DNA from: an uncultured Gammaproteobacteria bacterium
GTDB lineage: Bacteria; Patescibacteriota; Patescibacteriia; UBA9934; GWF2-40-263
Assembly (NCBI GenBank): GCA_964538435.1
Contig: CAZIDX010000001.1
Span: 64,393-128,392, forward strand
Reading direction: 5' to 3'
Length of the DNA: 64,000 nucleotides
The position numbers and the translations under genes were made by a program. The stretch's first letter is position 1. Each line of letters starts with the position of its first letter. Positions 6,697-45,074 of this stretch are shown here, piece after piece. The notes below the pieces were generated by a model, which saw nothing but the letters and a program-made list of their open reading frames with translations, was not told where the DNA came from and did no database searches.

Positions 6697-6728
6697 TTGA
6701 CACCACCTAAGACACATGCTGCAATAAT
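6697..6728 (+). promoter_or_regulatory. candidate promoter for the four-helix-bundle gene
   Basis: TTGACA at 6697-6702 with a weak -10 (TGCAAT/AATAAT) about 17-20 nt downstream. This TTGACA is what the ORF track used as a TTG start. Confidence 0.25.
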
Positions 6729-6762
6729 TACACAATCCCCTAATTCGGGGATTTTGTTTTAT

Positions 6763-6791
6763 ATAGGTCCAATAGGACCCTCAAGACCTAT
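6763..6791 (+). repeat. 29 bp palindromic motif, copy 1 (ataggtccaataggaccctcaagacctat), overlapping the start codon
   Basis: The outer arms ataggtc/gacctat are exact reverse complements. A second copy at 7142-7170 matches at 23 of 29 positions. Confidence 0.6.
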
Positions 6792-7332
6792 GGAGGATAA
6801 GCTAATTACAAATCAAGGTGGATATCGCAATCTAAAGTCATTTCAGAGCGCAACGATTGTTTATGATTTTACTGTACATTTTTGCGAAAAGTATATTTCA
6901 GATTGGAGAATGAAAGATCAAATGATCCATGCAGCAAGATCAGGTCGACAGAACATCGCAGAGGGATGTCAGGTGTCAGGAACATCAAAAAAGAGTGAGA
7001 TGAAGCTGGTGAATGTTGCTCGTGGAAGTTTGGAGGAGTTGTTGTTAGATTACGAAGATTATTTAAGGCAGAGAGGGGTTGAGCAGTGGAAAAAGGATTG
7101 TGATGACGCACAGAATGTGCGCTCACTCGCATATGTGGAAAATAGGTCATATAGGACCTATTCGACCTATCTATCAGACCCGTCCAAAGCTGCAAACACA
7201 GCAATCTGCCTAATTAAACAATCAACCTATTTACTTGACCGACAGTTGGGTGCGCTCCAAAAAACATTCCTTCAAGATGGTGGATTTACTGAAAGGTTGT
7301 ATAATTATCGTAAGCAAAGTAGAGGTTTTTAG
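6790..7332 (+). CDS. four helix bundle protein (TIGR02436; 23S rRNA intervening-sequence protein family)
   Basis: Family signature EKYisdwrmkDQMIHAARSgrQNIAEGcqv...KSEMKLVNVARGSLEELLLDYED. In-frame ATG at 6790. It has its own promoter-like box and a terminator. Confidence 0.75.
   Translation: MEDKLITNQGGYRNLKSFQSATIVYDFTVHFCEKYISDWRMKDQMIHAARSGRQNIAEGCQVSGTSKKSEMKLVNVARGSLEELLLDYEDYLRQRGVEQWKKDCDDAQNVRSLAYVENRSYRTYSTYLSDPSKAANTAICLIKQSTYLLDRQLGALQKTFLQDGGFTERLYNYRKQSRGF
7142..7170 (+). repeat. 29 bp palindromic motif, copy 2 (ataggtcatataggacctattcgacctat), inside the same CDS
   Basis: Same arm structure as copy 1. It encodes NRSYRTYSTY. Confidence 0.6.
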
Positions 7333-8949: not shown

Positions 8950-11900
8950 CTAGATTGCGTGCTCTGCTATGTATTCTTTCAGAGCATTTGCCATCTTCTC
9001 GTATCCTTCACCTGTCATGTTATCGATGAAGTTGTCGTGTGTGCCAGACTTAAGATCTATTCCTGGGTCAATGATTGGATACGCCGCACGGAATTCACTA
9101 AACGGCATCAGATCCTCGCCATTACTGAATGCGGTTTCCACAAAACTCTGTGCGGCAGTAAGAAAATCTCCACCATTTGAGAGAATCCAGTTCTCTACAC
9201 CAATCCCTCCAAGACCGCCCTGGCCATAGTCACCCTTTTTGTAGCAACCAGCTTCAGTAAGTGTCATTTTTGCAAACACAACATTTGTTACCGTCCTCTC
9301 AAAAGCTTCTTCCCCATACTTCTCGCGAATGACATTGAGTCGATCTTGCACACCAAAATGAGATGAGTATTCTTCGTGCTCAGACTTTTGAACGAATGCA
9401 ATATCGATCCCCACAGGAATATCCAAACCTGGAACCGAAATGTCTCCAAAACGGAGTTGAATATCATGGGATCCGTTATCTGTTCCACCCAGAGCCTCCA
9501 GTTTTACGATAAACGCATCAAGAAGCTCGTCTCTGCGAGCGTAATCTGCAGGATCAAGTCGGATTGCAAAGTCAAAGTCATAGTCCTTAGGTCGGTTTGT
9601 AAAGCGAGTGGATGACCCAGTCTCATGCAACTCCGCACCCGCTATAGTGGCTTCGTGATCCACCCTCCATTCAATTCCAAGGGATGTGAACGTATCTGCC
9701 ACAAGTGCACGCACAGTCTCACAAGCAACCCTTGTTGCTTCCTTGTCTTCTTGCTTTGCTCTAAGCAATTCCTCAACAGCGTTGTTGTGAAATTCATCTG
9801 CCTCTGCTCGTGCAAGATCAAATTCAGGCCCATTCAGACTCTCAATACCTGCAAGAAACTTCTCACGCATCTGGTCATATTGCTCAGGTGTAAACAAGAG
9901 CTCTCCATCAAGGTTTATGATCGGCATGTACCAACCATTCGTAGCAACATCAATTTGTAGACTCTGAAGATGGCTTTGATCAAATTCATCACCAAGCACC
10001 ACGGCATCAAACTCAGAAGAGGGGAGACCTACAGTCACACCCGTATGCCTTTCAGTTCCTTTTGTTGGCACCATTGAACCGTCGCGCCTAAGAGAGGTAA
10101 GTTGATCTGAAACCAGGAGCTCATATTTTCCTTCTCGTTTGCGAGCCTCTCTTCCAAACAAAGGCATCTGCTCACCATCATCACTTGTGCGGATAAACTG
10201 ACCTCTGTCCCTGCTGTAGAAGTACACAGGTCCATAGCCCTGAACCCACTCTTCTGCTTCACGAAGATCAGATCGAACTTCAACAAAGTCAGTATTAAAC
10301 GGGGTCATATCATTCTCGCTAGATGCTCCAAGAAACTCCATTGAAACAGAACCTCCTCTCAACACATTTCTGAAGAACTGCTCGTTAACCCCTTTAAACT
10401 GGTCTCCGCTCTGAGGCGTAAATTCACCTGAGCGAATTTCTTCTGCTAAAGCCCTACCACGCTCGTTAGCACCTGCCTTCACCTGATCCATCCGATCAAG
10501 AACTTGATCGACCGATTCATACCCAACAGGCTTTGCAAACATTTCCTCGTACCTATCAACCAAACTCTGCCCCTCTTTAACCTGCATGCTCTCCAAAAGT
10601 TGCTTGAAGGTTGTGGCAAGGCCTTCCTCATTCATTGTAAATGGTTCTTCGTCAATTTTTCCAAGCATGGACACCTCATGAGCTGTAGACATCTTTTCGC
10701 AGAAACGAGAAAACCTCTTCTGTTCCTCTTCATTCATGCCCTCAAGTCCGACTTGTTCAAATTTTTGAATAACATCCCGAGCATCTCGTATACTTTCAAG
10801 ATAGGTTCTTAGAGAGTCGTTGTTTGATTCAATATTTACACGTGTGAGCTCTCGATAAGCAACCATTCTCATGCCCCTGGTGCTCACATCTTCAAGTGAA
10901 ACAACGGGGCCATCATCAAGACGTCTATCTAGAGTGCTCTGATCACGAAGATAGATTATTTCAAAGACTTTCAGGTGTTTTCCAAACTCAGGAAGATTGT
11001 TGCGAACAAAAATTGCTTCAATCTCTTCAACAGTCTCAAGGGGTTTTTCTGTTCTGTGAATAGCTGCTATGACAGAGTCTTTTACCTTTTGAAGTGAAGC
11101 CGAAGGTGATTGTTCAATTCGTGCATAAGCTTCAAAAAGATCAGGTCGAACACCCTCAGCCTCAAAGTGCTCACGATGAAACATGATCTGCTGGAATCGG
11201 CCTTTCTCTAGCGCGGAATCTATAAGCGCGTTGTAATCAATCTTCACCCCAGCTTGATCAAAGAGCCCTCCATATCCAAGAAGCACCTCTGTCCCAGCCT
11301 TCTGAGTAAGGGAATCAGCAAGCGCCTGCACTCCAACTTGATCTATGAAATCAGCATGATACTTCAAAAGTTGAGTGAATGCATACACACCATCACTTGT
11401 TGTTGGGTCTACATGCACCTTCACCGTCTCAACGATCTGCTGAACATCATCTTTAGATAATTCAAAGTTTGGACCTTGAAAAGCATTCTTCTCCACAAGA
11501 ATCCCAATCAGTTCTGTGTGAGTATCGATCCTTCCTATCAGAAGATCTTTAATTTGATTGCGCAATTCCGGATCAAGCAGCTCAAGAAAATCTGGATCAA
11601 TTATTCGTTGAACCTCTTTCACATTTCCATACTCAGCAGCTGTAAGTGCATAACGCTGTCTTGTTTCCGGATTCAGATCAACAGCATCAAAAGTGTGCAT
11701 TTCATACACAAGTGTGACTTCATCTTGTTCAAGAAGTCTCTGCGCAAACTCATCAGCTCTTTCCCCGGAGAAGGTGGCCAAGTAAAACGGCTCTCTGGTT
11801 AACATCCATGCTCTGCTGTCCCTGAACTTATCTCGGTCAAGCCACTCAGCTCCCTCAACATCTGCATGGTCTTTCAGTTTCAATACAATATCTGCAGTGT

Positions 11901-13170
11901 CACCTGCTGATAATTCTCGAAATTGGATCATTTTTTGAACGTTTTCAAGAAGAGGAGGACCAACTTCTGGAATTGCAAGAGCTTCTGGTTTTGATTCACA
12001 AAAGGCAATAGCGAAAGCCTTGATATGTTCTTTTGTCCTCAGTGCTGATGTCTTGAGAACAAGAGGGTTTCCATGTGAAAGAGCGATCTGCACTTCATCT
12101 TCAAGAGTGATGCTTGCCGGTCGCACGGATGATTCGTAGATATAAAGAGAGTTGATTGGAGCATCCTCCTCGGCAACAGCAGCAAGTTCATTCAAAGCGT
12201 TTATTCTTGTTTCTCTATCAAAGTCAGCATTCGTTCCAAGCATAAGAATCAACCCGGGAAGACCATGCTCAAATGCAGATGTTGCGAGCATTTCTTTTTG
12301 CTGCGCACTCATCTTTACATCACGGCCACGGTCGTCATAGACAGCTTCTCTCAATTCGTCTGGGCTCAATGCCATAAGCTTCTCAAGCATGCTCTGCCTT
12401 GCCTCATCAGAAGCATGTTCAAATACAACAGGATTGAGAAAATCGCCCTTCTCACCAATCCATTCTCCCTTTTCATTGTCAAAACAAAGCGCAGCTTTCA
12501 ATTCGCTTTGAAGAGCGGTCCTTCCTACGAACACATGATCAAGACGAAGTTTCGATGCGCAAAATTCACGCATGCCCGATGCAAGAGGATCGCCTTGATC
12601 CATGTCAACCACACGTTTGAAAAATCGTTCCTGCTGATCTGATGTGAGCGCAAGACCGTCAAAGTGATGTCTTACTTGGGGAAGATTGTGGTCCACCAAA
12701 GTATCAATAAGCTTATCGTGAGTCTCAGGCGTTAAAGCGTTTCCATCAATCAAGCTTAAAAACTCGCCTGCACTGCTTGGATCCTTGGCAATGGCATCAA
12801 CAAACATCTTGACTTGCTTGTAGTCAGGCTTCTCTCCAGACACAGACAATCTGTGTGCAATCTTCTTTGGATCACCAAGCCCGATTGTTTCCAGCATCTG
12901 GTCCATTGCTTCTTCGGCTCTCTGCGCAAGACTAGCGAGCTTCTCTCGCAGTGTCTCGTCAGGTTCCTCTCCAAGGTTTTCTGCTATCTCAGATGTCATC
13001 TGTTCTCCGCTTGCAACAAAATCTTCCACATGGCCTTCAGCCTGCTCTGCAAGTTCACCAGGGACTGGCTCATACCGATCATCCAGCTCCTCATTAGACA
13101 ATGGTTCAGACTCAGCACCTGCTTTCTGGTTGTCGCGTTTGTCCTCTCTATTCATTGTCATATTCCTCAT
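8950..13170 (-). CDS. giant 1406 aa protein with a C-terminal Pol-beta-superfamily nucleotidyltransferase-like motif
   Basis: Long uninterrupted ORF with an acidic N-terminus and no signal peptide. Near the C-terminus, GSSTRFTNRPKDYDFDFAI fits hG[GS]x9-13DhDh, and GIDIAFV about 55 aa downstream fits the third acidic strand. Confidence 0.7.
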   Translation of the reverse strand: MRNMTMNREDKRDNQKAGAESEPLSNEELDDRYEPVPGELAEQAEGHVEDFVASGEQMTSEIAENLGEEPDETLREKLASLAQRAEEAMDQMLETIGLGDPKKIAHRLSVSGEKPDYKQVKMFVDAIAKDPSSAGEFLSLIDGNALTPETHDKLIDTLVDHNLPQVRHHFDGLALTSDQQERFFKRVVDMDQGDPLASGMREFCASKLRLDHVFVGRTALQSELKAALCFDNEKGEWIGEKGDFLNPVVFEHASDEARQSMLEKLMALSPDELREAVYDDRGRDVKMSAQQKEMLATSAFEHGLPGLILMLGTNADFDRETRINALNELAAVAEEDAPINSLYIYESSVRPASITLEDEVQIALSHGNPLVLKTSALRTKEHIKAFAIAFCESKPEALAIPEVGPPLLENVQKMIQFRELSAGDTADIVLKLKDHADVEGAEWLDRDKFRDSRAWMLTREPFYLATFSGERADEFAQRLLEQDEVTLVYEMHTFDAVDLNPETRQRYALTAAEYGNVKEVQRIIDPDFLELLDPELRNQIKDLLIGRIDTHTELIGILVEKNAFQGPNFELSKDDVQQIVETVKVHVDPTTSDGVYAFTQLLKYHADFIDQVGVQALADSLTQKAGTEVLLGYGGLFDQAGVKIDYNALIDSALEKGRFQQIMFHREHFEAEGVRPDLFEAYARIEQSPSASLQKVKDSVIAAIHRTEKPLETVEEIEAIFVRNNLPEFGKHLKVFEIIYLRDQSTLDRRLDDGPVVSLEDVSTRGMRMVAYRELTRVNIESNNDSLRTYLESIRDARDVIQKFEQVGLEGMNEEEQKRFSRFCEKMSTAHEVSMLGKIDEEPFTMNEEGLATTFKQLLESMQVKEGQSLVDRYEEMFAKPVGYESVDQVLDRMDQVKAGANERGRALAEEIRSGEFTPQSGDQFKGVNEQFFRNVLRGGSVSMEFLGASSENDMTPFNTDFVEVRSDLREAEEWVQGYGPVYFYSRDRGQFIRTSDDGEQMPLFGREARKREGKYELLVSDQLTSLRRDGSMVPTKGTERHTGVTVGLPSSEFDAVVLGDEFDQSHLQSLQIDVATNGWYMPIINLDGELLFTPEQYDQMREKFLAGIESLNGPEFDLARAEADEFHNNAVEELLRAKQEDKEATRVACETVRALVADTFTSLGIEWRVDHEATIAGAELHETGSSTRFTNRPKDYDFDFAIRLDPADYARRDELLDAFIVKLEALGGTDNGSHDIQLRFGDISVPGLDIPVGIDIAFVQKSEHEEYSSHFGVQDRLNVIREKYGEEAFERTVTNVVFAKMTLTEAGCYKKGDYGQGGLGGIGVENWILSNGGDFLTAAQSFVETAFSNGEDLMPFSEFRAAYPIIDPGIDLKSGTHDNFIDNMTGEGYEKMANALKEYIAEHAI

Positions 13171-13385: not shown

Positions 13386-14699
13386 CTAGTTGGGGAGACG
13401 AATCTGGGCGACCAGACCGTCTGAGACAAGCTCGAGATCCATTGGACCCTTCCTTAGAAGCGCCAGGAGCCGGGCGTGTTGTTCGTCGCGAAGTCCGATG
13501 AGGACACAGTTATGGATCAGTTCCTGCTCGGCCTTAATGTTGTCGATCCTGCGCTGGATGGCACTGTGTGAGCTGTTACGCGTGATCGCGTTACACGTGA
13601 TCTGGCCCACTGCACCAAGACGGTAAAGAGTCAGCATCTGCATCGGGCCCCAATCCAAGTGAGGTTGCTCTTCCCATACAAAGATCGAAGTACCGTTCAG
13701 GAACGCTTCGTCAACATCCAGGTCGATCTCATCATCAACTGACGACTGCATCCACGTGCTCATGAGCCACTGGTTCTCAGTAGACGAGAGAATGCGTGCC
13801 TGACCCTTGTGTACAAAAGCACCGCTGATGGCTGCACTTGTTGCAATGAGGGTTGCATTCGATGACTCTGGCATTTCCTCGCGCATCTGCATGCGCCCAG
13901 GAGTTGGTCGGATCTGCACCAAGTGCCAATCATCAGGCTGATCAGGGTGAATCACGAGTTCGAGCTGAACACCGAACTTGGATCCGATCCCATTCTCAAT
14001 CACACGAGGAAGTTCTTGCGCAAGATCGGACCAGGGCAGGGTAACAGGATTCTCAACCAGCACCTCACCTCGTTGGAGCTCGACAAGAGTATTCCCATCT
14101 GTGTCCAGTACGGTAGTAGGCCCCTCATGATCCATGGTTGCACTTGTAAACTTTCGGATACCGCTCGGGCAAAATTCTCGTCCGCAGGAAATACGGACGA
14201 CAACCTGCTCGAGGATATCGCTCCATGCGATATCAACCACCACCCCAACACCCGTCACATGCTGTTGCAGTACGATGGGGATGCGGGCATGGATCGATTC
14301 GATGAGCTGGCCGCGCAGATTCGGAATCTTAACCTTGTGGGAAGGGTGAACGCCGCTGTCAGCCGAGAGCCAGTCTTCGTCATGTGCACTGCTGCGCACA
14401 ATGAGAACTTCGTTTTGGTCCTGCGCCCACGGGATACCAGCAATGAACTGGCCCATGTCCTGATGCATGACTTCAGAAAGTTGGATCCAACGCCACTTGG
14501 GCACCGAGATCTTGTCAGAGAGTCGCGCAATTCGCTTGCACAGCTCCAGTCCAAATGCTTTGCCCCCACCTGTCATCAGCGTAGTGACAAGCTGTAGATG
14601 ATCATCTGGATCCAGATGCTCAAATGCAGGATCCATCACAACAGCGCCTGCGCGCCGGTGGCCGTAAACCCAGCCACATGGGTCGAACTTCTTGTTCAT
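13386..14699 (-). CDS. PEP-utilising enzyme N-terminal (PPDK_N, ATP-grasp-like) domain protein; GC-rich
   Basis: TGGGKAFGLEL (GGKxxNL-like) and LIVRSSAHDEDWLSADSG (VRSSAxxED..SxAG) match the PPDK_N family. No His/PEP domain follows. Confidence 0.55.
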   Translation of the reverse strand: MNKKFDPCGWVYGHRRAGAVVMDPAFEHLDPDDHLQLVTTLMTGGGKAFGLELCKRIARLSDKISVPKWRWIQLSEVMHQDMGQFIAGIPWAQDQNEVLIVRSSAHDEDWLSADSGVHPSHKVKIPNLRGQLIESIHARIPIVLQQHVTGVGVVVDIAWSDILEQVVVRISCGREFCPSGIRKFTSATMDHEGPTTVLDTDGNTLVELQRGEVLVENPVTLPWSDLAQELPRVIENGIGSKFGVQLELVIHPDQPDDWHLVQIRPTPGRMQMREEMPESSNATLIATSAAISGAFVHKGQARILSSTENQWLMSTWMQSSVDDEIDLDVDEAFLNGTSIFVWEEQPHLDWGPMQMLTLYRLGAVGQITCNAITRNSSHSAIQRRIDNIKAEQELIHNCVLIGLRDEQHARLLALLRKGPMDLELVSDGLVAQIRLPN

Positions 14700-17837: not shown

Positions 17838-19577
17838 ATGCCTATGATTCCATTGTTGGGTATTCCGATTGTATCGGATGCAACAGGAACAGCTGCCGCA
17901 GCAACATCATACTTCGCACAACCTATCGATGCGATTCTTTTTGATATCCTGATCTGGTTTGGTTGGATCCCGATTGCAGTCACGCTTGTCTGGGGCTTCA
18001 CGCTGGTTTGGCTTGGTTACAGACAGGCTGGGCATGTGGCCAGGCTTAAGTACATGGTGCTTGCTATCGATGTTCCTGCAATGACAGAGCAGTCACCAAA
18101 GGCACTTGAGAACCTTTTTGCATCTCTGTACGCATGTAAGTCTTCGATCACATTCAAAGAAAAATGGCTCTACGGAAAATTAAATCCAAATTTTTCATTT
18201 GAGATTGTTTCCACAGAAGGCTATATCCAATTTCTAATCAGGTTCCAAACACGATTCCGAGATGTTATTGAAGCTGGTATCTACGCACACTATCCTGATG
18301 CAGAGATCACAGAAGTTGAGGACTACACTGAACAATTTCCAAAAACCTTTCCAAACGAAACACATGAAATGTGGGGAGGGGAAATTACGTTTGACAAACC
18401 GTCCATGTACCCACTTCGGACCTATGTTGATTTTGAAGATCGGTTGTCTGCAGAACTAAAAGACCCCTTGGCCTACATGCTCGAGCAAATGGCAAAAATG
18501 AAAGCAGGGGAGCATTTTTGGATTCAGATTATTGTCCAACCTTCAACAAATAGCTGGAAGGATGCAGGTGTGAATCACGTTAAGGCTATTTACGGGGATG
18601 TCCCAAAGCCAAAAAAGAGCAAGATTGCTGCTGGAGCCGAATCGCTCATGTCTTGGCCAAACGAGCTTCTTAAAGAAGGTATAGATGTAGATTTAAGCGG
18701 ACTGCTGTTTGGTGATGCAGCAAACGGAGAAGAAGACCCTTGGAAAGTTTTCAAGCTGACATTGCCCCAAATCGAGGAGGCAAAAGCCATTTTACAAAAA
18801 TCAACAAAGGTTGGGCACGGAGTAAAAATCCGCATTCTTTACGTTGCAAAGCACAACTCCTATGTAAAGATTGAGCGCACAGCAATGGTAAAGGGGATCA
18901 TGAACCAGTACGCACACCTCAACTTCAATCGTTTTGGTCTGCATATTGCTTCAGTTCCAAAAGATGATTATTTCTGGATGAAATGGAGCTATACAAAACG
19001 CCAAAACACACTCATGAAGGCATATTGCTCACGCTCATGGGGAATTGGCGCACACAACATGTGGATGAACGTTGAGGAATTGGCAACGCTTTGGCATTTC
19101 CCTGCGGTCCACATTAAAGCACCGCTCGTTAAGAAGGCAGAGGCCAAGCGTGCCGAGCCTCCGGTTGGTCTTCCCATCACAGATCTAGAAGACACACTTC
19201 CTGGATACAAACCCACCACAGCAGACGAGGGGTTGGATCTGCCTGGGGCTGGGCAAGATCAGCAAGAATATTCAGCCGGCATTGCCACAGCTGATTCAGT
19301 GATGGGTGAGCCGCCTGTGGATCTCCCAGGAGCGAGTCTAGAGGATGGTCCGTTGCCAGAAACACTTCCTTCAACAATCGCACCAACAAGCACAGAGCAA
19401 CCAGAACCTGAAACAACAATCGATATCCCAGAGCCACCTGAACCAGAACCTGAAAAAGACCCTCTTGCATTTGAAGAAAGCGTACTCCCTGAGGTAAAGG
19501 CTCCGACCGACAAAGAAAGCCAAGAAGAACTCAAGGACGATGATGAAACATTTGTCCCACCAAACCTTCCAGTATGA
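17838..19577 (+). CDS. membrane-anchored protein with an acidic, Pro-rich C-terminus; partner of the downstream T4CP-like ATPase
   Basis: One or two N-terminal TM helices, then a roughly 480 aa soluble region. The C-terminal region is Pro-, Glu- and Asp-rich. Its stop overlaps the next ATG. Confidence 0.55.
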   Translation: MPMIPLLGIPIVSDATGTAAAATSYFAQPIDAILFDILIWFGWIPIAVTLVWGFTLVWLGYRQAGHVARLKYMVLAIDVPAMTEQSPKALENLFASLYACKSSITFKEKWLYGKLNPNFSFEIVSTEGYIQFLIRFQTRFRDVIEAGIYAHYPDAEITEVEDYTEQFPKTFPNETHEMWGGEITFDKPSMYPLRTYVDFEDRLSAELKDPLAYMLEQMAKMKAGEHFWIQIIVQPSTNSWKDAGVNHVKAIYGDVPKPKKSKIAAGAESLMSWPNELLKEGIDVDLSGLLFGDAANGEEDPWKVFKLTLPQIEEAKAILQKSTKVGHGVKIRILYVAKHNSYVKIERTAMVKGIMNQYAHLNFNRFGLHIASVPKDDYFWMKWSYTKRQNTLMKAYCSRSWGIGAHNMWMNVEELATLWHFPAVHIKAPLVKKAEAKRAEPPVGLPITDLEDTLPGYKPTTADEGLDLPGAGQDQQEYSAGIATADSVMGEPPVDLPGASLEDGPLPETLPSTIAPTSTEQPEPETTIDIPEPPEPEPEKDPLAFEESVLPEVKAPTDKESQEELKDDDETFVPPNLPV

Positions 19578-21769
19578 CAATGCATCACGACCATGAGAAC
19601 GAGGTGACGTATTTTGGAAAGACCAACTTCCGCAATCAGCTCACCAAGTTCGGAATCAAAACCGACGATAGGCGTAGGCATATCTACGTGATCGGAAAGA
19701 CCGGTATGGGTAAGACGACATTGATGGAAAACTTCATCTTGTCTGATATCTATGCGGGTCATGGTTGTTGTTATGTTGATCCTCACGGAGACACTGCAGA
19801 AAAACTTATTGACTTCATTCCAAGCTGGCGCATCAATGACGTAGTGTATTTCAACCCAGCTGATTTAGAATATCCTGTAGGATTTAATATTCTCGAAGCT
19901 GTTACAGAAAGGCATAAGCACTTAGTTGCTTCTGGAATGATGGCAGTGTTCGCCAAGATTTGGGAAGGAATGTGGTCATCGCGAATGGAATACATTCTCA
20001 ACAACACTATCCTTGCGCTCCTGGACAATCCAGGCCAAACAATGCTTGGAATCAACCGAATGATGTCTGATGCGGAATTTAGAAAGCGAATGGTTGGAAA
20101 CATTAAAGATCCGGTTGTAAAACAATTCTGGGTAAAGGAGTTCGCTAGCTGGTCAGAGAAATACGCCACAGAAGCCACAGCCGCCATTCAAAACAAGATC
20201 GGTCAGTTCTTGTCTGCGGGTGTGATCCGAAACGTGGTTGCGCAGGTTAAGTCCACAATCGACATCCGTGACATCATGGATTCTGAAAAGATTTTCATCA
20301 TCAACCTGTCAAAAGGGCGTATTGGTGAAGATAACTCCAGGCTCCTGGGTGGGTTGCTTATTACAAAAATTCAGCTCGCAGCCATGGAGCGTGTGGATGT
20401 ACCAGAAAAGGAGCGCAAAGACTTTTATCTCTACGTGGATGAGTTCCAAAACTTTGCTGTTGAATCTTTTGCGTCCATTTTGTCTGAGGCGCGTAAGTAT
20501 CGCCTTTGCCTAACCATGGCTCACCAGTACATTGCTCAGCTCACAGAAGAAGTTCGCGATGCTGTGTTTGGTAACGTTGGAACCATTCTTGCCTTTCGTG
20601 TTGGAGCAGCAGATGCCATGTACATGGAAACCGAGTTTACACCTAGGTTTCTGCCAGAAGACATTATCAATCTTCCAAAATTCAACATCTACCTCAAACT
20701 ATTGATTGATGGTGTGACAAGCCAGCCGTTTTCAGCGGTCACGCTCCCGCCAATTGCTCAAGTAACACACTCATCAGAAAAGGTGATTAGAATTGGACGT
20801 GAGCGCTATGCTGAGCCTCGTGCACACATTGAAAAGAATGTTCTCGATTGGAGCGGGCTTGGAAAACAAACGGATGAAGAGATGTATGCAGAAGCTGCAG
20901 AGAAAAAGAAAGCAGCAAAGAGCGCAAACAAACCTCGGCACGAATACAACTGCACACGCTGCAACACAGACATTGTGCTTCCGGTAGAGCTAGATCGTTC
21001 TCGTGCTATTTACTGTGACGACTGCATCACCATTGTTCGTGAGGAGCGAAAGAACAACAAAAAAGGAAAGAAAGGCAAGTCTGCTGACAAGCCAAAGCCG
21101 CCAAAGCCTTCAGAGGGCCAGGTGGTTGAAGCAAAGCCAGAAGAACCATCAATTAGTTTGAAAAAGCTGGAGACCAAGCCAGCAAAAGAAGACCGTCCTA
21201 AGCTAAAGGTTGTCCTTCCTGCAGAGATTAAAGAGCGAGAAGAAAAAGCAAAAGAAAAGGCAAGAGCTGAGAAGGAAAAACCAAAACCACCAAAACAAGA
21301 AAAAGCTCCAGAGCCAGAGAAGAAGCCAGAAGCTCCAAAACAACCAAAGCCCGAGCACAAAAAAGAAGACAAACCAAAAGAAGAAGAAACGGTCGGTCTA
21401 AAAAAGCTAGAGGAAAAACCAAAGAAACCGGTTCAGGAGGATCGGCCAAAATACAAAGTGATTCCTCCAAAGAAAAAAGAAGAACAAAAACCGAAGACAG
21501 AGGAGCAACCAAAACAAGAGGATCCAAAACCTCAAGATGCTCCAAAAAAGAAAAAGAGAAAGAGACGAAGGAAAAAGAAGCCTGGTCAAAACCCTGAGCA
21601 GCCGAAAAAAAACGAAAACAAACCTGAACCTCCAAAAGCAGACAAGCAGGACAAGCCAGAACAGGATAAAACCAAGCGGCCGCCAACACCAAAGCAGTTT
21701 CAAAAGCAAAAAACAGAAGATCACGTAAGCGGCAAGCTCAAACCTGGACAAAGCATCCAGTTTGATTAA
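19574..21769 (+). CDS. type IV coupling protein-like ATPase (TraD/TrwB/VirD4 family), soluble, with a zinc ribbon and a basic repetitive tail
   Basis: Walker A VIGKTGMGKTT, YVDPHGD, Walker B FYLYVDEFQNF, and ARKYRLCLTMAHQYIAQL. Zinc ribbon CTRCNT..CDDC. About 230 aa of K/E/P-rich tail. No N-terminal TM. Confidence 0.7.
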   Translation: MTMHHDHENEVTYFGKTNFRNQLTKFGIKTDDRRRHIYVIGKTGMGKTTLMENFILSDIYAGHGCCYVDPHGDTAEKLIDFIPSWRINDVVYFNPADLEYPVGFNILEAVTERHKHLVASGMMAVFAKIWEGMWSSRMEYILNNTILALLDNPGQTMLGINRMMSDAEFRKRMVGNIKDPVVKQFWVKEFASWSEKYATEATAAIQNKIGQFLSAGVIRNVVAQVKSTIDIRDIMDSEKIFIINLSKGRIGEDNSRLLGGLLITKIQLAAMERVDVPEKERKDFYLYVDEFQNFAVESFASILSEARKYRLCLTMAHQYIAQLTEEVRDAVFGNVGTILAFRVGAADAMYMETEFTPRFLPEDIINLPKFNIYLKLLIDGVTSQPFSAVTLPPIAQVTHSSEKVIRIGRERYAEPRAHIEKNVLDWSGLGKQTDEEMYAEAAEKKKAAKSANKPRHEYNCTRCNTDIVLPVELDRSRAIYCDDCITIVREERKNNKKGKKGKSADKPKPPKPSEGQVVEAKPEEPSISLKKLETKPAKEDRPKLKVVLPAEIKEREEKAKEKARAEKEKPKPPKQEKAPEPEKKPEAPKQPKPEHKKEDKPKEEETVGLKKLEEKPKKPVQEDRPKYKVIPPKKKEEQKPKTEEQPKQEDPKPQDAPKKKKRKRRRKKKPGQNPEQPKKNENKPEPPKADKQDKPEQDKTKRPPTPKQFQKQKTEDHVSGKLKPGQSIQFD

Positions 21770-22596: not shown

Positions 22597-22720
22597 ACCT
22601 CGTCATCCTGACCCCGCCGAAGGCGGTAGGAAGGATCCCATACTAAGCAAGAAAACCTTCAATGAGCAGCTTTAAGGTCTTCCTGAAGGGAATCCTTCGC
22701 TCCGCTCAGGATGACGAGGT
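22597..22720. other. roughly 125 nt imperfect inverted-repeat element; candidate structured RNA or MITE-like element
   Basis: Perfect 15 bp outer arms acctcgtcatcctga / tcaggatgacgaggt. Nested inner pairings gcgg..gaagga..tccc / ggga..tccttc..ccgc. It lies between the uppP terminator and the HD-domain gene. Confidence 0.35.
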
Positions 22721-26644: not shown

Positions 26645-27418
26645 CTAGCCACCGAGACGGGTTCGCCCCATCTCGACCAGATCAGCGAGTGTGGCGAGGT
26701 CGTCATCGAATAGCACCATGGTGAGCTTCTCCCACATGTGGCCGAGCTGGCCCTCGCGGAAGGCAGCGACCTTCTTGTCGACCTCACCCGGAGGGATGAT
26801 CAGGACATTGAATCCGTCCGGATGCATCATGTTCGTGTCGAAGATGGTGTCGCCGATGCTCAACACTTGCTCAGGATGAAGGTCAGAGAGCTCGCGCCAA
26901 CGTGCTGCAGCCAGCGCCTTGGTCATGGGCAGGACCAAGTTCATGTTGCAGGCCTTGACCCGCATCTGTTCATCCACACCCAGACGAATGGCGGCCACAG
27001 GGCACGCCACATCGTAGCGCTCCTGCCAGCCACGAATCATCTGCTCGATGCCGAAGCTGCAGATCAGTGCAGGGCCTACCGTATCCATGAGCTCGTACGC
27101 ACCCTCTCGAGGTGCCAGCTCAGCACCAGCCTTGATCACGTCTGCAATGAGGACACCGTCCTTTTCCGCTCGCATGATCGGCAGAAGGGCCAGTGCCGCA
27201 TCGACGGCAGCGATGTTCTCCTCCATGATCGCACCCAGCAGCCAGTCCTCATTCTCCAGATCGTCCGGGGCATTGCCGTTGTTGCGAGTCGTGTGGTACC
27301 AGTCGATGGCCTCCTTGCCGAGCCGCTTGGACTCGTCAGACATGAGCGCCTCGAACGCCCGCCACTGACTGTCCGTGATCAGGGTGCCACAAAAGTCGTA
27401 CACACCGCCACGGACCAT
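26645..27418 (-). CDS. HAD-superfamily hydrolase-like protein; GC-rich
   Basis: Motif I-like VYDFCGTLIT near the N-terminus, with Cys replacing the second Asp. Motif IV-like IGDTIFD. I prefer the internal ATG at 27418 over the ORF-track start at 27658, which overlaps the neighbouring gene. Confidence 0.45.
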   Translation of the reverse strand: MVRGGVYDFCGTLITDSQWRAFEALMSDESKRLGKEAIDWYHTTRNNGNAPDDLENEDWLLGAIMEENIAAVDAALALLPIMRAEKDGVLIADVIKAGAELAPREGAYELMDTVGPALICSFGIEQMIRGWQERYDVACPVAAIRLGVDEQMRVKACNMNLVLPMTKALAAARWRELSDLHPEQVLSIGDTIFDTNMMHPDGFNVLIIPPGEVDKKVAAFREGQLGHMWEKLTMVLFDDDLATLADLVEMGRTRLGG

Positions 27419-27611
27419 GCCCGCGAAGTCAAAGAGGTCTGGGGTCGGAACCCGAGAAATGATCTGCGGGACACCTGAATCGATCAGGGTAAGAGCGTCG
27501 TACAGGTTCGTGACGTGGGAGATGGGAAAGTGCACAGTTCCTCCTGTGATCCACAGGGATCGAAAAAGCCGTCTGTTGACGGCCTTGATCTTATCAATAT
27601 TGGTATTTGTG

Positions 27612-28202
27612 TCAATTTGCTTGCGCCCAATCGTAAAACTCAGCAGCAGAACTCGCATTCAAATCAGCGTCAATCGTTGAATATCCAGGATTATGTCCTT
27701 CCGTGATCTCAATAGGCACAGGAAGAAGCATGTATTCATTGGAAAATTTAAGTGTTGTCTGCACGGAACCTTCGATTGGAATCACATGCACAGACTCAAG
27801 AAAATTGTAGTTCACAACAGAAGCAGAGCCATTTTCAACAACGTTTTCAGTCTGATTCGTAGTTATCCACACCGGCGTACCTCCAGCCTCAACCACGATT
27901 CGTCCGCGAATAATCCGAATCGTCGGCCCATCCTCGCTCAAATCCTCAAGCTCCAGACGAGTATTTTCCGCTAGATACACATGAATATCTTCTCCAATCT
28001 TTAGCTCAAGCCAAGTATAGGCCGTGTCAACATACGCTCCGCGCTTAAACTCACTGCCAATCTGATAATCAGAAGCTCCATCAATCTGCATCACAACAAC
28101 ATCCAGCCGAGGTTCAACAACAAAGCGTTGCACGATGAGAAGTCCAAAAATAATAGCAATGATCAATCCTGACAGAACAATGGGTAAATGTTTTTTGGTC
28201 AT
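27612..28202 (-). CDS. membrane-anchored hypothetical protein
   Basis: MTKKHLPIVLSGLIIAIIFGLLIV is a single TM anchor. The first ATG is at 28202; the ORF track used a TTG. Confidence 0.5.
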   Translation of the reverse strand: MTKKHLPIVLSGLIIAIIFGLLIVQRFVVEPRLDVVVMQIDGASDYQIGSEFKRGAYVDTAYTWLELKIGEDIHVYLAENTRLELEDLSEDGPTIRIIRGRIVVEAGGTPVWITTNQTENVVENGSASVVNYNFLESVHVIPIEGSVQTTLKFSNEYMLLPVPIEITEGHNPGYSTIDADLNASSAAEFYDWAQAN

Positions 28203-28252
28203 ATGCAATCCAGGTTATGATAAGATTGTAACGTAGAAATCAAAGCTTGCCT

Positions 28253-29212
28253 ATGAAAAACATCCTAACCCTCAGCCTGCTGTGCCTAATCGTTTTTGCC
28301 GGCATTGGCTGCACACAAACCTCATCACTCTCGGCTGAAGAGGCTGCAAGCGCACTTTCACTTCAAACAGGCGCAGAGATTATCGTTCGCCCAACCGTTT
28401 TTGGTGTTGGCGGAGCAATCGTTGAGTGGCTTGGGAGTGAAGAAAACGAATGGGAGGTTGATCTAACAAGTTGGTCCACAGCTGCCTCAGTCACCCTGAG
28501 CTGGTCTGTTACCTCCGAGGTTGAAACAGACGCATCAAAAGCAGCCATCTACGCCTACGAGCAGGAATATGCAGAAACCCCAATCGGAGTTGAGATCCCA
28601 GATCCACCTGAACCGCAATACGAAGAAGTTGTGAAAAGCGGCTCACTCGCAAGCGAATCACTCTCAAACGCACAGCGCCTCACACTCCCTGAGTATTGGC
28701 CAGAAGGCGATGCGGGCGTGCAAGACTCATCACTCATTTGGCTTTCTGCCGATCAATACAACGAACTCGTAAATACACGCGCTACATCAATCAGTCTAGG
28801 TCTCTTTGACGAGTCAGTCATGCAAGCAGAAAACGCAGCAGAGACCATGCAAAACCTCGTTGATCAGTTTAAAGGCTTGTTTCCAGGATCAGAGGAGGGG
28901 GGTGATACAGAAGAGACAACTGATGCTTTGCTAGATATTACAACCGTCAACGCCGATGGTGACTGGGGGACCTACACACTCACGGTTAACAATGTTCGCA
29001 CTAAAGTCCGCACCATCGAAGCCGAAAATAAGTTTGCGACCTACACCATTCTTGCCAACCCAAACAATCCAATCATTCTAGAGATAAAACTCAGTCCATT
29101 AGCCCAAGGAACTGTTCAAGCCTTCAACCCAACAAACATAGCTAGTAGTTTCTCAGGGTATGAGATCATAAAGATAAACTCAGTCGTAAGCGAAGAAACG
29201 GAATCGATATAA
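28253..29212 (+). CDS. lipoprotein, hypothetical
   Basis: MKNILTLSLLCLIVFAGIGC is a signal peptide plus lipobox. The mature protein is Asp-, Glu-, Ser- and Thr-rich. Confidence 0.6.
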   Translation: MKNILTLSLLCLIVFAGIGCTQTSSLSAEEAASALSLQTGAEIIVRPTVFGVGGAIVEWLGSEENEWEVDLTSWSTAASVTLSWSVTSEVETDASKAAIYAYEQEYAETPIGVEIPDPPEPQYEEVVKSGSLASESLSNAQRLTLPEYWPEGDAGVQDSSLIWLSADQYNELVNTRATSISLGLFDESVMQAENAAETMQNLVDQFKGLFPGSEEGGDTEETTDALLDITTVNADGDWGTYTLTVNNVRTKVRTIEAENKFATYTILANPNNPIILEIKLSPLAQGTVQAFNPTNIASSFSGYEIIKINSVVSEETESI

Positions 29213-29243: not shown

Positions 29244-29302
29244 AGATACAAAAAAACGGCACAGTAGACAGCCCGCCCTGATCGTAGTATCGGGGTTTTG
29301 TA

Positions 29303-29330
29303 ATTGAAAACACCGTCCGTAGACGGTGCC
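29303..29330 (-). terminator. rho-independent terminator for paralog A (minus strand)
   Basis: caccgtc-cgta-gacggtg. On the minus strand it is followed by TTTT. Confidence 0.45.
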
Positions 29331-29347
29331 GTTGCCGACGTGTTCGG

Positions 29348-29827
29348 CTAGCCCATGGCGATCAGGGCGCTTGGTTGCATGAGTAGGAGCTCCGCAACGG
29401 TCATGCCGTGCTTTCGCCAGTGCTCTGCAGCCTCGAATGAGAGGCCGCCATCTTCCTCGTCAGCCAGGAAGATCTCATCGTGCAGCGGTTCCCAGTCTTG
29501 AAGCTGGCTGATGAGGTCGAGCTGCCCGCACAGGCGCCTGAACTCGGCATCCAGGAGCATCTCCATGTGGTTGTGATCCTCAGTGCTGCAGAGCTGCCTG
29601 AGCCAGTCATTCCTGATGGAAACCACCACCTCACGCCGCAGGAACACAAGCGTGCGTCCATCCAGCGGAAGTCTCTGGTGCGTTTCCGTCAGCTGACAGA
29701 GCCTGTTGCAGAATTGCCTCCAAGCATCCCGCGTCTCAGGTGCGATGAAGTTCACAAATCGAGGGTCATCAGCAAGTCTCTCCCAGACCCGCTCGCCAGT
29801 CAAAGTATCGGTGTCCACTACGACCAC
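29348..29827 (-). CDS. GC-rich hypothetical protein, paralog A of a tandem pair
   Basis: Shares (T/D)LL(T/S)GE..WE.L near the N-terminus and W...G(M/N)MT(V/I)..LLL(M/I)QPS at the C-terminus with the neighbouring gene. I prefer the GTG at 29827, which follows a perfect AAGGAG SD; the ORF-track TTG is at 29875. Confidence 0.5.
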   Translation of the reverse strand: MVVVDTDTLTGERVWERLADDPRFVNFIAPETRDAWRQFCNRLCQLTETHQRLPLDGRTLVFLRREVVVSIRNDWLRQLCSTEDHNHMEMLLDAEFRRLCGQLDLISQLQDWEPLHDEIFLADEEDGGLSFEAAEHWRKHGMTVAELLLMQPSALIAMG

Positions 29828-29911
29828 CCCTTTCTCCTTGTCAAGATTTTTAACATGACACACAGTCCACGTCAATAAGAAAACACCGCCGCAAGACAGT
29901 GTTCGTTGATC

Positions 29912-30439
29912 CTATCGGATCGGAATCAGGAACAGGCTTGGCTGGATCAGGAGCAGGTCCCGGATGGTCATGTTTCCTTGCTCCCATCTCTGCATTGCCA
30001 CAGACGAGAAACTTCCTCCACCTGGGCATTTCAGGAAGTAGCGCAGGTTATCCTCATCGAGGTCAAGCATGTCTCTGTGGTTCGTGAGTGCATCATGAAG
30101 CACATTCGCTTGCGAAATCAGAGCCATACAACCAATCTCGAGAGTAGTTACGTGATATGCCCTAGCTGCTATCTTGTCGACCTCATCAGGCAGATGTGGG
30201 TGCAGGTAGCACCTGGGAATCCATTCGCCCTCGATCAAGAACATGAGTGCAGCGTGCTTTGTCTTGATAAAACTCTCTGCACTAATACTGCTCGACAGGT
30301 GAGGAGCAAAAGTTGAGGCGATTGCATCACACAACGCCACCCAAGCTTCTTTGTTGGGCTCAGGAAACATAGATTGGAAGAGCTCTTCTTCCCGAAGTGC
30401 TTCCCAAAGCTGTTCGCCACTGAGCAGGTCAGTAGTCAT
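29912..30439 (-). CDS. GC-rich hypothetical protein, paralog B of a tandem pair
   Basis: Homologous to paralog A. The internal ATG at 30439 gives an N-terminus (MTTDLLSGEQLWEAL) that aligns with A. Confidence 0.5.
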   Translation of the reverse strand: MTTDLLSGEQLWEALREEELFQSMFPEPNKEAWVALCDAIASTFAPHLSSSISAESFIKTKHAALMFLIEGEWIPRCYLHPHLPDEVDKIAARAYHVTTLEIGCMALISQANVLHDALTNHRDMLDLDEDNLRYFLKCPGGGSFSSVAMQRWEQGNMTIRDLLLIQPSLFLIPIR

Positions 30440-30530
30440 GCGCGTCCCTTCTGCGTGCCTCCACGCGTTCTGAACGTTTTGCCACAGACAAAGCAAGCTG
30501 TCAATACACCCCACCCCACCAGCAACCAAA

Positions 30531-30625
30531 AAAGATTAAACAAAAATACAACCCATTGTTGGTGGTAGCCCATGCGATATAGGCTGCCCGGTTCCGACAA
30601 TGGGTTGTATTTTTGTTTAATCTTT
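30531..30625. repeat. perfect 29 bp inverted repeat with a 37 nt spacer; likely era terminator and boundary of the GC-rich island
   Basis: aaagattaaacaaaaatacaacccattgt ... acaatgggttgtatttttgtttaatcttt. On the minus strand the hairpin is followed by TTTTTTGG. Confidence 0.55.
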
Positions 30626-30636
30626 GAGGACGCATC

Positions 30637-31485
30637 TTATTCAAACCGAACCATCCAATGTGGATCAACTTCCACTTCCATATCCAAGAAAACTTTCGCT
30701 TGCATCACAAGCTCGAGTTCTTTGCGCGTGCTTTGCCCAATCTCTTTGATTCCACGACCACCTTGCCCAATAATCATTCGCTTGTACCGGTCATCAGTGG
30801 TGAAGATCGTGGCAGCAATGTACATCATGCCATTCTCACGCTTCTCAACCTCAGAAACTTCCACATGCGTAGTGTACGGAACCTCCTGGCGCAACCGGAG
30901 GAACAGCTTCTCTCGAATGAGCTCTGCAAGCCAGAACTTGTTCGGCATGCTTGTGAGTTGGCCTTCTGGGTAGTACGCCTCGCCCTCAGGGAGCAGCTCT
31001 AGGATGGTATCAATAAGTTTCAATGTGTTTGTGCCGCGAAGAGCTGAGACTTCAACAACATGATCAAAGTCCTCACCAAGATCTCTGTAGAAATCAATAA
31101 AAGGTTTCTTTTGAAGGTCGATCTTATTGATGACCAAAATCTTTGGGCATTTCACGTCCTTAATCATGCGGATCACAGATTTTTCTTCATCTCCAATGTC
31201 TCGAGTGGGATCGACAATGTACGCAATCACATCAACATCAACAAGAGATGCCTTCACAGCGTCAGAGAGCCTCTTTGAAAGCAGATCTTTAGCACCTTTC
31301 AGCACTCCTGGAGTGTCCACAAAAACAATCTGACCCTCTTCTCGAGAAAGAATTCCTTGAATAGGCAGGCGAGTTGTTTGCGGCTTTGGAGTTGTAATGG
31401 CGACCTTTGAGCCGACCATTGTATTCATGAGCGTGGACTTTCCAACATTAGATCGTCCAATCATGACAGCGAATCCTGATTTCAT
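30637..31485 (-). CDS. era: GTPase Era
   Basis: G1 motif GRSNVGKSTLMN and a C-terminal KH domain. Length 282 aa. Confidence 0.9.
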   Translation of the reverse strand: MKSGFAVMIGRSNVGKSTLMNTMVGSKVAITTPKPQTTRLPIQGILSREEGQIVFVDTPGVLKGAKDLLSKRLSDAVKASLVDVDVIAYIVDPTRDIGDEEKSVIRMIKDVKCPKILVINKIDLQKKPFIDFYRDLGEDFDHVVEVSALRGTNTLKLIDTILELLPEGEAYYPEGQLTSMPNKFWLAELIREKLFLRLRQEVPYTTHVEVSEVEKRENGMMYIAATIFTTDDRYKRMIIGQGGRGIKEIGQSTRKELELVMQAKVFLDMEVEVDPHWMVRFE

Positions 31486-44051: not shown

Positions 44052-45074
44052 TTGACTATGATTAACTTCATCCACCGGGCTGTTCCGGTGGATGAGGAGA
44101 GAAACATGATAGCTGCCTCAATGGCCGCAAATACGCCGCATCGTCACAGGCTCTCAATCGGCGACCAGGCAAAGCGGGGCGCTATGAACCGGAGAGAGTT
44201 CGCGCTTCCTGAGTCATTGCTGCCCGACGATATCGGTCGTGTTCGACTTATCGGTGGTCCCCATGACATCCCTGCGGCAGTGGGTGTCAGGAGCATCATC
44301 ACACTGCAAGAAGCTGCCATGTCCATGAAGCTGGTGACAGACCACTGGCAGCTTGTTCTGGAGCCCTACGATCCCAATCTGCTCAAGCGATCACTCGCTC
44401 GGGTAAAGCAGATCGGCCCCACAGATCCGCCACCTGCATTTGGTCTCGGCGAGCCACTTCCTGCCACAAGCGACATCACTGACATGATGCAGTTGGCGCA
44501 CAAGGAGCTGTCCCGACTTCGACCTCACTACGAGGGAACCATGCTCCTGGTCGTGTTCTGGCAAGATCGTGATGGGCTGCCACACTTCGACTTCGTCGCA
44601 ACCTCCCTGGACGGACTTCGCCAAAAGCGCATGCGAGCGCTCCGGCACAACGAACGTGTCAAAGCCAGTTCAGCGCCTTTCCCATGGCCGATCCACATGC
44701 CCACGTGGCTTCCTCCTTGGATGGGGGCCGGTGTGCAGATATGGGGTGAGGGCAACTACATCGATGCTCCCATGATCCCACCAACCGACGAGTGGGTCTC
44801 AGGCAACAAGGACGCTCTCACAAAGATCGTGGACAGGCATTTCAAACCTGCTCTCTGGAGTCTTTGGAAAGCAACGTTCGCAGAACCTGAAGTGGCCGCG
44901 AAGCTGGCTAGTCAAGGGTATCGCCTGGAGGAAAGCGACCGAACAAGAATGGGTGGTGAAGAGCTCAGAGAGCTCATGGACTACCGCTCTGCAGACCCCG
45001 CAAACCTCACGGTCATGGGCGATCTGTCCATGCTCGAAGAACTCGCGGCTGACGCAATCAAGCCGCTCACATAG
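44052..45074 (+). CDS. GC-rich hypothetical protein
   Basis: 340 aa, about 60% GC, Pro- and Trp-rich. I recognise no motif. Confidence 0.45.
   Translation: MTMINFIHRAVPVDEERNMIAASMAANTPHRHRLSIGDQAKRGAMNRREFALPESLLPDDIGRVRLIGGPHDIPAAVGVRSIITLQEAAMSMKLVTDHWQLVLEPYDPNLLKRSLARVKQIGPTDPPPAFGLGEPLPATSDITDMMQLAHKELSRLRPHYEGTMLLVVFWQDRDGLPHFDFVATSLDGLRQKRMRALRHNERVKASSAPFPWPIHMPTWLPPWMGAGVQIWGEGNYIDAPMIPPTDEWVSGNKDALTKIVDRHFKPALWSLWKATFAEPEVAAKLASQGYRLEESDRTRMGGEELRELMDYRSADPANLTVMGDLSMLEELAADAIKPLT

Follow-up and report, generated by a model that had tools for sequence, protein, structure and literature searches.

Two small minus-strand genes, here called A and B, lie side by side between era and a lipoprotein gene in a stretch of 64,000 nucleotides (nt) of contig CAZIDX010000001.1 (assembly GCA_964538435.1), which we refer to as the window. 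The two genes are true, diverged tandem paralogs, and the segment that carries them is, judging by comparison with related genomes, a lineage-specific insertion in a Candidatus Uhrbacteria chromosome. Their products belong to a rare protein family, seen thus far in Uhrbacteria-type (CPR) sequences only, which is best regarded as new and uncharacterised and whose genes act like variable accessory cassettes. We propose that the pair arose by a two-step insertion, that a large hairpin between era and B acts as a terminator and that the family consists of binding proteins with a conflict-type role. This explanation as a whole is held with moderate confidence; the anatomy of the locus and its insertion history, taken for themselves, are considered highly probable from the sequence comparisons.

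The organism was placed by its Era protein. In an Era search, the Era sequence of the window was 57-79% identical to those of Candidatus Uhrbacteria metagenome-assembled genomes (MAGs), so that the DNA is taken to come from a bacterium of the Candidate Phyla Radiation (CPR, or Patescibacteria). Genomes of this group are small, for a substantial fraction of their genes no function is known, and lineage-specific orphan families are common among them.

The era/lipoprotein slot

Gene A (29348-29827, minus strand) encodes 159 amino acids (aa) from a GTG start and gene B (29912-30439, minus strand) 175 aa from an ATG start, and their products score 146 and 151 bits against the profile hidden Markov model (HMM) of their family. 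For A, the GTG start was chosen because this codon, its Shine-Dalgarno (SD) site and a promoter-like box are kept in the orthologous locus of a related contig (L086), while longer TTG/ATG starts are not conserved. The two proteins are 26% identical over 172 aligned columns (BLASTP, E 2e-12) and share an N-terminal block (TDxLxGExxWExL) and a C-terminal block (W..G.MT[VI]..LLL[MI]QPS), exactly as listed in an earlier reading of this DNA made from its letters alone (the sequence-only reading), whose proposal of two adjoining minus-strand paralogs is borne out. That reading had also given both genes about 60% GC, which is right for A (58.8%, with 72.5% GC at third codon positions, GC3) but not for B (50.8%, GC3 56.2%); the background is 46.8% GC for the window and a mean gene GC3 of 46.5 +/- 8.5. 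The isoelectric points (pI) of the products are 4.75 and 4.94.

The pair lies, as that reading had placed it, between era (30637-31485, minus strand; GTPase plus KH domain, Pfam MMR_HSR1 and KH_2) and the lipoprotein gene (28247-29212, plus strand; signal peptide and lipobox-like LVFAGIGC), which form the conserved left-hand and right-hand flanks of an insertion slot. In nine Uhrbacteria relatives (L005-L012 and L014, Era 68-79% identical), era abuts the convergent lipoprotein gene, the lipoprotein orthologs follow immediately after era and the remaining neighbourhood is syntenic, with no A/B family gene within 10 kb. The arrangement that the sequence-only reading expected of relatives lacking the island, era beside the lipoprotein gene, is the one found in all nine. 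Two nearer relatives, found by metagenome scan, hold a single A-type gene in the slot (L086, Era 91.5% identical; L085, 86%); A is closest to these two genes (44% and 41%, respectively) and orthologous to them. By blastn, window position 30638 corresponds to L086 position 1093 and window position 29888 to L086 position 1117, so that window 29889-30637 (hairpin, B and the terminator of B; about 750 nt) is extra relative to L086. The same gap holds about 1.8 kb of cargo with two orphan open reading frames (ORFs) in L013 (10907-12623), and an ImmA/IrrE-like HExxH protein with a small membrane protein of 105 aa in L021 (10857-11708); because these cargos are unrelated, we regard the era/lipoprotein gap as an insertion hotspot. 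Integration linked to a tRNA is ruled out, as the window contains no tRNA or tmRNA, and no Pfam family of integrases, recombinases or transposases was detected among the called genes within +/-10 kb of the locus.

Gene A has diverged much further than the genes around it. Between the window and L086, protein identity is 91.5% for Era, 90% for MnmA, 89% for an HD-domain protein, 82% for the lipoprotein, 76% and 72% for neighbours of 198 and 337 aa, and 44% for A. Nonsynonymous divergence (dN) is 0.47 for A, three to eight times that of its neighbours (0.06-0.16), and synonymous divergence (dS) is saturated at 4.8 for A, against 1.0-1.5 for the neighbours; dN/dS was dropped as a test of positive selection because of this saturation. 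The flanks of A (the upstream promoter/SD stretch, and the 3' end with the terminator) align to L086 at 75-80%. This pattern would reflect either unusually fast evolution of the coding core or alleles swapped by recombination through the conserved flanks.

As read from its signals, A is a self-contained expression unit made of a TTGAC-type -35 box, an SD site, the 159 aa ORF and a terminator. The promoter-like site (29846-29875, minus strand; TTGACG, an 18 nt spacer and AAAAAT; consensus scan, 9 of 12 matches) lies in a stretch that aligns to L086 1117-1189 with 80% identity. The SD site AAGGAG (29834-29839, minus strand, 6 nt before the GTG) is kept in L086 (AAGGAGAAAGGGGTG) and L085 (GAAAGGAGTGG), and so is the intrinsic-terminator hairpin after the gene (29306-29328, minus strand; CACCGTC-TACG-GACGGTG, then TTTTC). 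An AAGGAG precedes only one of the 54 gene starts of the window, and four-base SD cores are also uncommon, in agreement with the rarity that the sequence-only reading had remarked on. Window gene starts are in general almost without SD sites (for example those at 2492, 7404, 22777, 40674 and 48355; GGAG at 4 of 54), and T occupies position -1 of the start codon in 33 of 52 genes (background 25%), often as ...ATCT or ...ACT, which suggests a lineage-specific non-SD initiation context.

The layout of A recurs across the family. In most of 16 family genes, the T-run of a preceding terminator is followed by an (A)TTGAC[AG] box, a GGAGG or AAGGAG lies 5-9 nt before the start, and a hairpin with a T-run follows the stop. 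With promoter-like box, SD site and terminator of their own, the units are regarded as autonomous, and they retain SD-led initiation in a genome that otherwise seldom uses it. B has a TATTGACA box upstream as a possible -35 element (30499-30506, minus strand) and a terminator-like hairpin with a T-run downstream (29881-29904, minus strand; consensus scan). Its SD site is weak and, as a point against its being a complete unit, no convincing -10 element accompanies the TATTGACA box, where the consensus scan called no promoter.

The inverted repeat after era and the order of events

Between era and B lies an inverted repeat of 95 nt (30531-30625), whose arms (30531-30559 and 30597-30625) match at 29 of 29 positions around a 37 nt loop and extend to 32 nt with one mismatch. 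The perfect repeat described by the sequence-only reading is therefore real, and it is the longest hairpin-type inverted repeat of the window (arms no more than 150 nt apart) and the sole perfect one. When the arms were searched for elsewhere, as that reading had advised, the window held no second copy even with three mismatches allowed (0 of 100 shuffles gave two matches), and none turned up in the other loci retrieved or among 2.9 million viral contigs. As RNA the repeat folds with -56.3 kcal/mol (z = -7.4). A second, imperfect and GC-rich inverted repeat lies in the gap between bacA and an HD-domain gene (22597-22720; arms of 27 nt with 81% complementarity, separated by 70 nt).

On the minus strand, the era stop codon (TAA) is followed by 11 nt, the hairpin, TTTTTT, a G-rich spacer and the TATTGACA box of B. 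The relatives carry terminators at this very position: a conventional one in L086 (AAAACCGGC...GCCGGTTTTTT), directly before the TATTGACG box of its A-type gene, and ordinary short bidirectional ones in L007, L008, L012 and L017. Usual intrinsic terminators have a GC-rich stem of 5-14 bp and a loop of 3-8 nt. The hairpin resembles them in its place, its stability and the six T that follow, but its stem is 29-32 bp long and AT-rich and its 37 nt loop is structured, so that the sequence-only reading was right to call the stem far longer than that of an ordinary terminator. These departures, and the fact that a consensus scan for terminators missed the hairpin, count against a terminator function. 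Its position and U-run nevertheless make us lean towards a terminator of era transcription, with somewhat more confidence than doubt. Its size, AT-rich stem and perfection are unusual, and a MITE-like origin (miniature inverted-repeat transposable element) or an artefact at the insertion junction is possible. L009, the nearest GTDB relative, carries three adjoining long palindromes (10853-10980) in the gap of 155 nt that follows its era gene, one of them with 43 nt arms of 84% complementarity; elaborate hairpins after era are in consequence not unique to the window. No Rfam family reached its gathering score for the hairpin, and two miRNA-precursor models (E <= 1; 33 and 22 bits versus gathering scores of 98 and 100) were set aside as generic hairpin matches. 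Probably an unusual terminator, the hairpin is of lesser importance than the genes it precedes.

The most economical history, as far as it can be read from the alignments, has two steps. An A-type gene would have been inserted into the era/lipoprotein terminator gap in an ancestor common to L086, L085 and this genome, and the A alleles would afterwards have been replaced or have diverged unusually far. The distantly related B would then have been added between era and A in this lineage, and the hairpin with its T-run, standing in place of the short era terminator of the relatives, would terminate era and insulate the co-directional B. Two points speak against this order of events: it is defined by three contigs of the clade only, with dS saturated, and the hairpins that follow A and B share 78% identity over 23 nt, a hint of past duplication. 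B could indeed be an in-place tandem duplicate of the whole A unit (promoter, gene and terminator) that then diverged extremely fast, the island being one acquisition followed by a local duplication; an early duplication at this site with subsequent losses is likewise conceivable. In keeping with this, the 10-mer CGGTGTTTTC occurs in the window only after A and after B, the heptamer TATTGAC stands ahead of both genes (629 nt apart), and within-locus duplication is seen elsewhere in the family (54% identity between the halves of the fused doublet P0035, 38% between the L094 genes). Yet B is closer to P0004 and P0011, proteins from other metagenomes (33%), than to A (26%), and A is closer to its L086 and L085 orthologs, which argues that B is no recent copy of A; both closest relatives hold an A-type gene only; and GC3 differs sharply between the two genes (56% in B versus 72.5% in A). 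TTGAC boxes and hairpin/T-run terminators moreover flank family genes generally, so that the short motifs common to A and B may be features of the module. We consider an in-place duplication unlikely.

The repeat itself could be a MITE-like miniature mobile element, or the end of an element that delivered B, and not a terminator. Bacterial MITEs such as Correia/NEMIS are alike in being about 100 nt long and intergenic, with terminal inverted repeats of about 26-30 bp and an ability to terminate transcription, and here 29 bp perfect terminal arms enclose a 37 nt core. Perfect arms would suggest a recent origin or copying, and the repeat, far longer than the terminators of the relatives at the same position, stands at the era end of the 750 nt that are extra relative to L086. 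MITEs differ in other respects, since the repeat is a single copy in the 64 kb, without related copies in the sequences searched, no target-site duplication was seen at its ends (flanks CCTC|AAAG...CTTT|TTTGG) and no transposase or integrase was found within +/-10 kb. It also sits and ends like a terminator, 11 nt after the era stop and before a T-run, and L009 likewise has long palindromes in the gap. A mobile element thus appears quite improbable and, as it lies at the terminator position of era, the repeat need not be the boundary of one. The sequence-only reading had described the island as bounded by the repeat; this holds in so far as the repeat marks the era end of the B-bearing extra stretch (about 29889-30637), but the island as a whole is not bounded by it. 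The lipoprotein gene, for its part, is followed by a terminator-like hairpin with a T-run (29275-29296, plus strand; consensus scan).

The A/B family and its distribution

An exhaustive profile HMM search of 1.84 billion representative proteins (E <= 1e-3) gave 41 representatives of the A/B family, nearly all of 153-205 aa; two are fused doublets (372 and 386 aa). A third long match, P0020 (344 aa), turned out to be a repeat protein unrelated to the family and was not aligned; 38 members went into the alignment and the profile scans. Motifs of the family are TGExxWxAL..DPxF near the N-terminus and W(R)xGxLT[IV]xxLLxxQPxAL at the C-terminus, and only L162, Q166 and P167 are invariant or nearly so, a pattern that does not look like an active site. 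The proteins are acidic (median pI 4.8) and about 165 aa long, and their sequences give no sign of a signal peptide or transmembrane segment. AlphaFold2 (AF2), run on B with the 38-sequence alignment, predicted an all-helical fold of ten helices (predicted local distance difference test, pLDDT, 91.6; predicted template-modelling score, pTM, 0.87); this model superseded a poor one made with the A and B sequences alone (pLDDT 57).

Neither structure nor sequence linked the family to a described one. Foldseek searches of PDB and BFVD with the model returned nothing better than E = 2 (template-modelling score 0.3), and a PDB sequence-profile search gave chance-level matches only (E >= 0.056). When the 38 members were scanned against Pfam-A, there were five single-member matches, all with E >= 0.006 and none to an Imm family; NCBIfam gave no match shared between members, the best toxin-antitoxin match being VapB with E 0.09 in one of the 38, and PADLOC and PHROGs gave single-member matches only (E >= 0.027). 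The Imm/SUKH-type identity raised by the sequence-only reading thus finds no match in these scans; nor did the profile searches match the A or B protein to a housekeeping family, as its idea of acquired cargo had implied. A Pfam UPF0231 match of A (E 0.031, 15 bits versus a cut-off of 25) is absent from all other members and was dismissed as noise. By tblastn, 50,697 phage and 72,556 plasmid records gave no family match, the viral contigs held no relative, and a scan of GTDB genomes with the C-terminal pattern found none. A word-indexed search was of little use here, since B alone retrieved only itself and the 38-sequence profile only three proteins. A literature search found nothing on the family.

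The named members, NQV90550.1 and OGL97334.1, come from Candidatus Uhrbacteria. Beyond the window, family genes occur as a tandem pair in L002 (26% identical), as two members in L094, as single genes in L088, L091, L095, L096 and L097, and in L092 as a fused doublet with four more genes lined up behind it (22-30% identical to one another), in an array of at least five genes that is ended by the contig edge. This array (2857-6456 of L092, Logan SRR25018341) is the largest seen and adjoins holA and rpsT. The TrmD proteins of L002 and L095, two high-GC contigs, match the TrmD of a contig linked to Uhrbacteria at 63-80% identity, which makes it probable that both come from the same lineage. The taxonomically assignable members are all Uhrbacteria or close kin; L092, L094, L096 and L097 do not count among them, which weighs against so narrow a distribution.

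Composition helps to trace where the genes came from. Family genes match their background in contigs of 57%, 62% and 67% GC (the 62% contig being of unassigned taxon), and are GC-rich relative to their background in low-GC genomes (61.5% versus 42.8% in L091; 56.5% for the array versus 43.3% in L092). This fits a movement of the genes from high-GC into low-GC Uhrbacteria with gradual amelioration afterwards, in which B (51%) would be further along than A. Since the genes are compositionally native in high-GC relatives, the donor was probably a high-GC member of the Uhrbacteria and not a host. An orphan gene of 337 aa in the window (26645-27658) is syntenic in L005, L008, L010, L013, L014 and L086, absent in L006, L007 and L011, and 5-11 GC points above its surroundings in six genomes. 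With such a persistent excess in a syntenic gene, elevated GC by itself says little about recent transfer in these bacteria, and the case for reading high GC as proof of it is weakened. Of the foreign composition put forward by the sequence-only reading, the atypical GC, GC3 and SD site of A stand, but GC alone says little about transfer.

Possible functions and further features of the window

The proteins are probably binders and not enzymes, as judged from their lack of conserved catalytic residues, their acidity and the helical model. The fused doublets suggest by a Rosetta-stone argument that neighbouring paralogs would work together as a dimer. In the conflict-type role that we propose, the proteins would neutralise a variable partner (a toxin or the protein of an invader) as immunity or antagonist proteins. 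Such a role fits the diverged arrays, the patchy presence, the movement across GC backgrounds and a divergence above that of the flanking genes; a specific function as immunity-like binders is put forward tentatively, as one possibility. Hosts are reported to attack Patescibacteria epibionts with an Esx-secreted effector (preprint, PMC13622651). This could offer a conflict role of the A/B family a plausible selective setting.

Several observations weigh against a conflict role. In the 11 contexts that were compared (the window, L085, L086, L002, L088, L091, L092, L094, L095, L096 and L097), no gene for a toxin, a nuclease, secretion or a recombinase stands regularly beside the family members, and across the loci outside the era slot no neighbour gene recurs; no match to a known immunity, antitoxin or anti-defence family was obtained in Pfam, NCBIfam, PADLOC or PHROG; and the neighbours are often genes of translation or ribosome biogenesis (era, trmD, rpsP, rpsT, rpsA, ftsJ). 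These last could point to a different role, or could reflect the mere gene content of small CPR genomes.

Known systems offer partial likenesses. Orphan immunity arrays and acquired interbacterial defence islands of polymorphic-toxin systems (Zhang et al. 2012, PMC3482391; Ross et al. 2019, cited in PMC13622651) are alike in their tandem, small, cytoplasmic and strongly diverged paralogs, a pattern that the family displays (A and B 26% identical; L092 members 22-30%), and in patchiness, horizontal spread, atypical composition and insertion at hotspots. The A/B family differs in having no sequence or fold link to described Imm families, in loci that lack a nearby toxin gene, toxin cassette or recombinase, and in short arrays (two to at least five genes) set among housekeeping genes, with a promoter-like box and a terminator for each gene. 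Integron cassettes are more loosely comparable as short single-ORF units of variable content and one orientation with a unit-associated inverted repeat. Unlike attC, the repeat found here is perfect and stands on the 5' side of B, and the other family loci, which have short terminators only, lack it; its arms hold ATTAAAC/GTTTAAT and not the RYYYAAC/GTTRRRY cores, no IntI gene was found within 10 kb of the locus, and typical cassettes are promoterless while the A/B units have promoter-like boxes and terminators of their own. With no profile match, toxin, attC cores or integrase, the locus was assigned neither to immunity arrays nor to integrons. Small acidic helical antagonists (type II antitoxins and the anti-restriction proteins ArdA and Ocr) are alike in size, pI of about 4.8, non-enzymatic appearance and fast evolution, but the A/B family has no partner toxin gene, was not found on phages or plasmids and shows no profile or Foldseek similarity. 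A and B do not form a type II toxin-antitoxin pair either: they are paralogs of each other, parted by a terminator-like hairpin and a promoter-like site.

The proposal of the sequence-only reading, in the form considered here, is an array of orphan immunity genes acquired recently from a donor of high GC, possibly the bacterium that hosts the epibiont. Small, acidic, cytoplasmic and diverged tandem paralogs in an insertion hotspot, the foreign-looking GC3 of A and its locally rare SD site are all in its favour, and immunity genes in an epibiont would make sense given the effector attack by hosts (PMC13622651). It is set back by the profile scans, in which none of the 38 members matched Imm/SUKH or another family, and by the contexts, in none of which a toxin gene (Rhs, contact-dependent inhibition (CDI), LXG and WXG genes included) or a remnant of one adjoins; for this last reason, the term immunity array is kept as an analogy only. 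Phage, plasmid and viral collections held no member, and a host donor is disfavoured by assignable members that belong to Uhrbacteria and their kin, some in high-GC genomes with native composition. Recent acquisition is not borne out, as the A-type gene is shared with two relatives at a synonymous divergence above 1. Taken in this full form, the proposal is very unlikely. The same low probability is given to the family being an accessory factor of translation or ribosome biogenesis and not a conflict protein, for which the neighbourhoods are the main argument: era in the window, L085 and L086, trmD, khpA and ftsJ in L088, rpsP with trmD in L002 and L095, rpsT in L092 and rpsA in L094, the L085 gene lying 20 nt after era with an SD site alone between them and probably being co-transcribed with it. 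However, the family is missing from the same locus in nine relatives, its copy number ranges from zero to at least five, A has the three- to eightfold dN described above, and such neighbours are expected by chance in CPR genomes of about 1 Mb that are rich in translation genes.

A bolder possibility, which we hold to be improbable, is that a new fold underlies a CPR-specific, horizontally exchanged cassette system. Its self-contained units (promoter, SD site, ORF and terminator) would drop into terminator gaps between housekeeping genes with no recombinase dedicated to the task, for instance through uptake of DNA and recombination guided by the flanks. The proteins would diversify as dimer-forming neutralisers of effectors from hosts or competitors, or else would be effectors delivered to the host, with the conserved LLxxQP C-terminus as a recognition tag. 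For the question of which genes of unassigned function mediate the antagonistic relationship between CPR bacteria and their hosts, the locus offers a cleanly delimited example. If the proteins are immunity- or effector-type binders, they would give a handle on the conflict between epibiont and host in a lineage not yet cultured; if not, they still are a well-documented new domain family suited to structural genomics. The clean hotspot, the arrays and fusions, a confident model without structural match and the movement across a wide range of GC make the family worth following up.

Elsewhere in the window, four further ORFs are GC-rich (14-1063, 13386-14699, 26645-27658 and 44052-45074; 54-59% GC, GC3 59-72%) and contain no Pfam domain; the one at 13386-14699 has a GGAGG site upstream. 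A single family of GC-rich orphans was considered and discarded, as BLASTP shows no relationship among these genes, nor between any of them and A or B. An ORF of 1406 aa (8950-13170) is likewise without any Pfam domain. Another ORF (6697-7332) has a match (E 6e-9) to PF05635, the "23S rRNA-intervening sequence protein" family, in a window that contains no rRNA gene. At 17838-21769, a VirD4/TrwB-type coupling protein (731 aa) is encoded beside a membrane protein of 579 aa without known domain, which suggests that machinery for type IV secretion or DNA transfer is encoded close to the locus.

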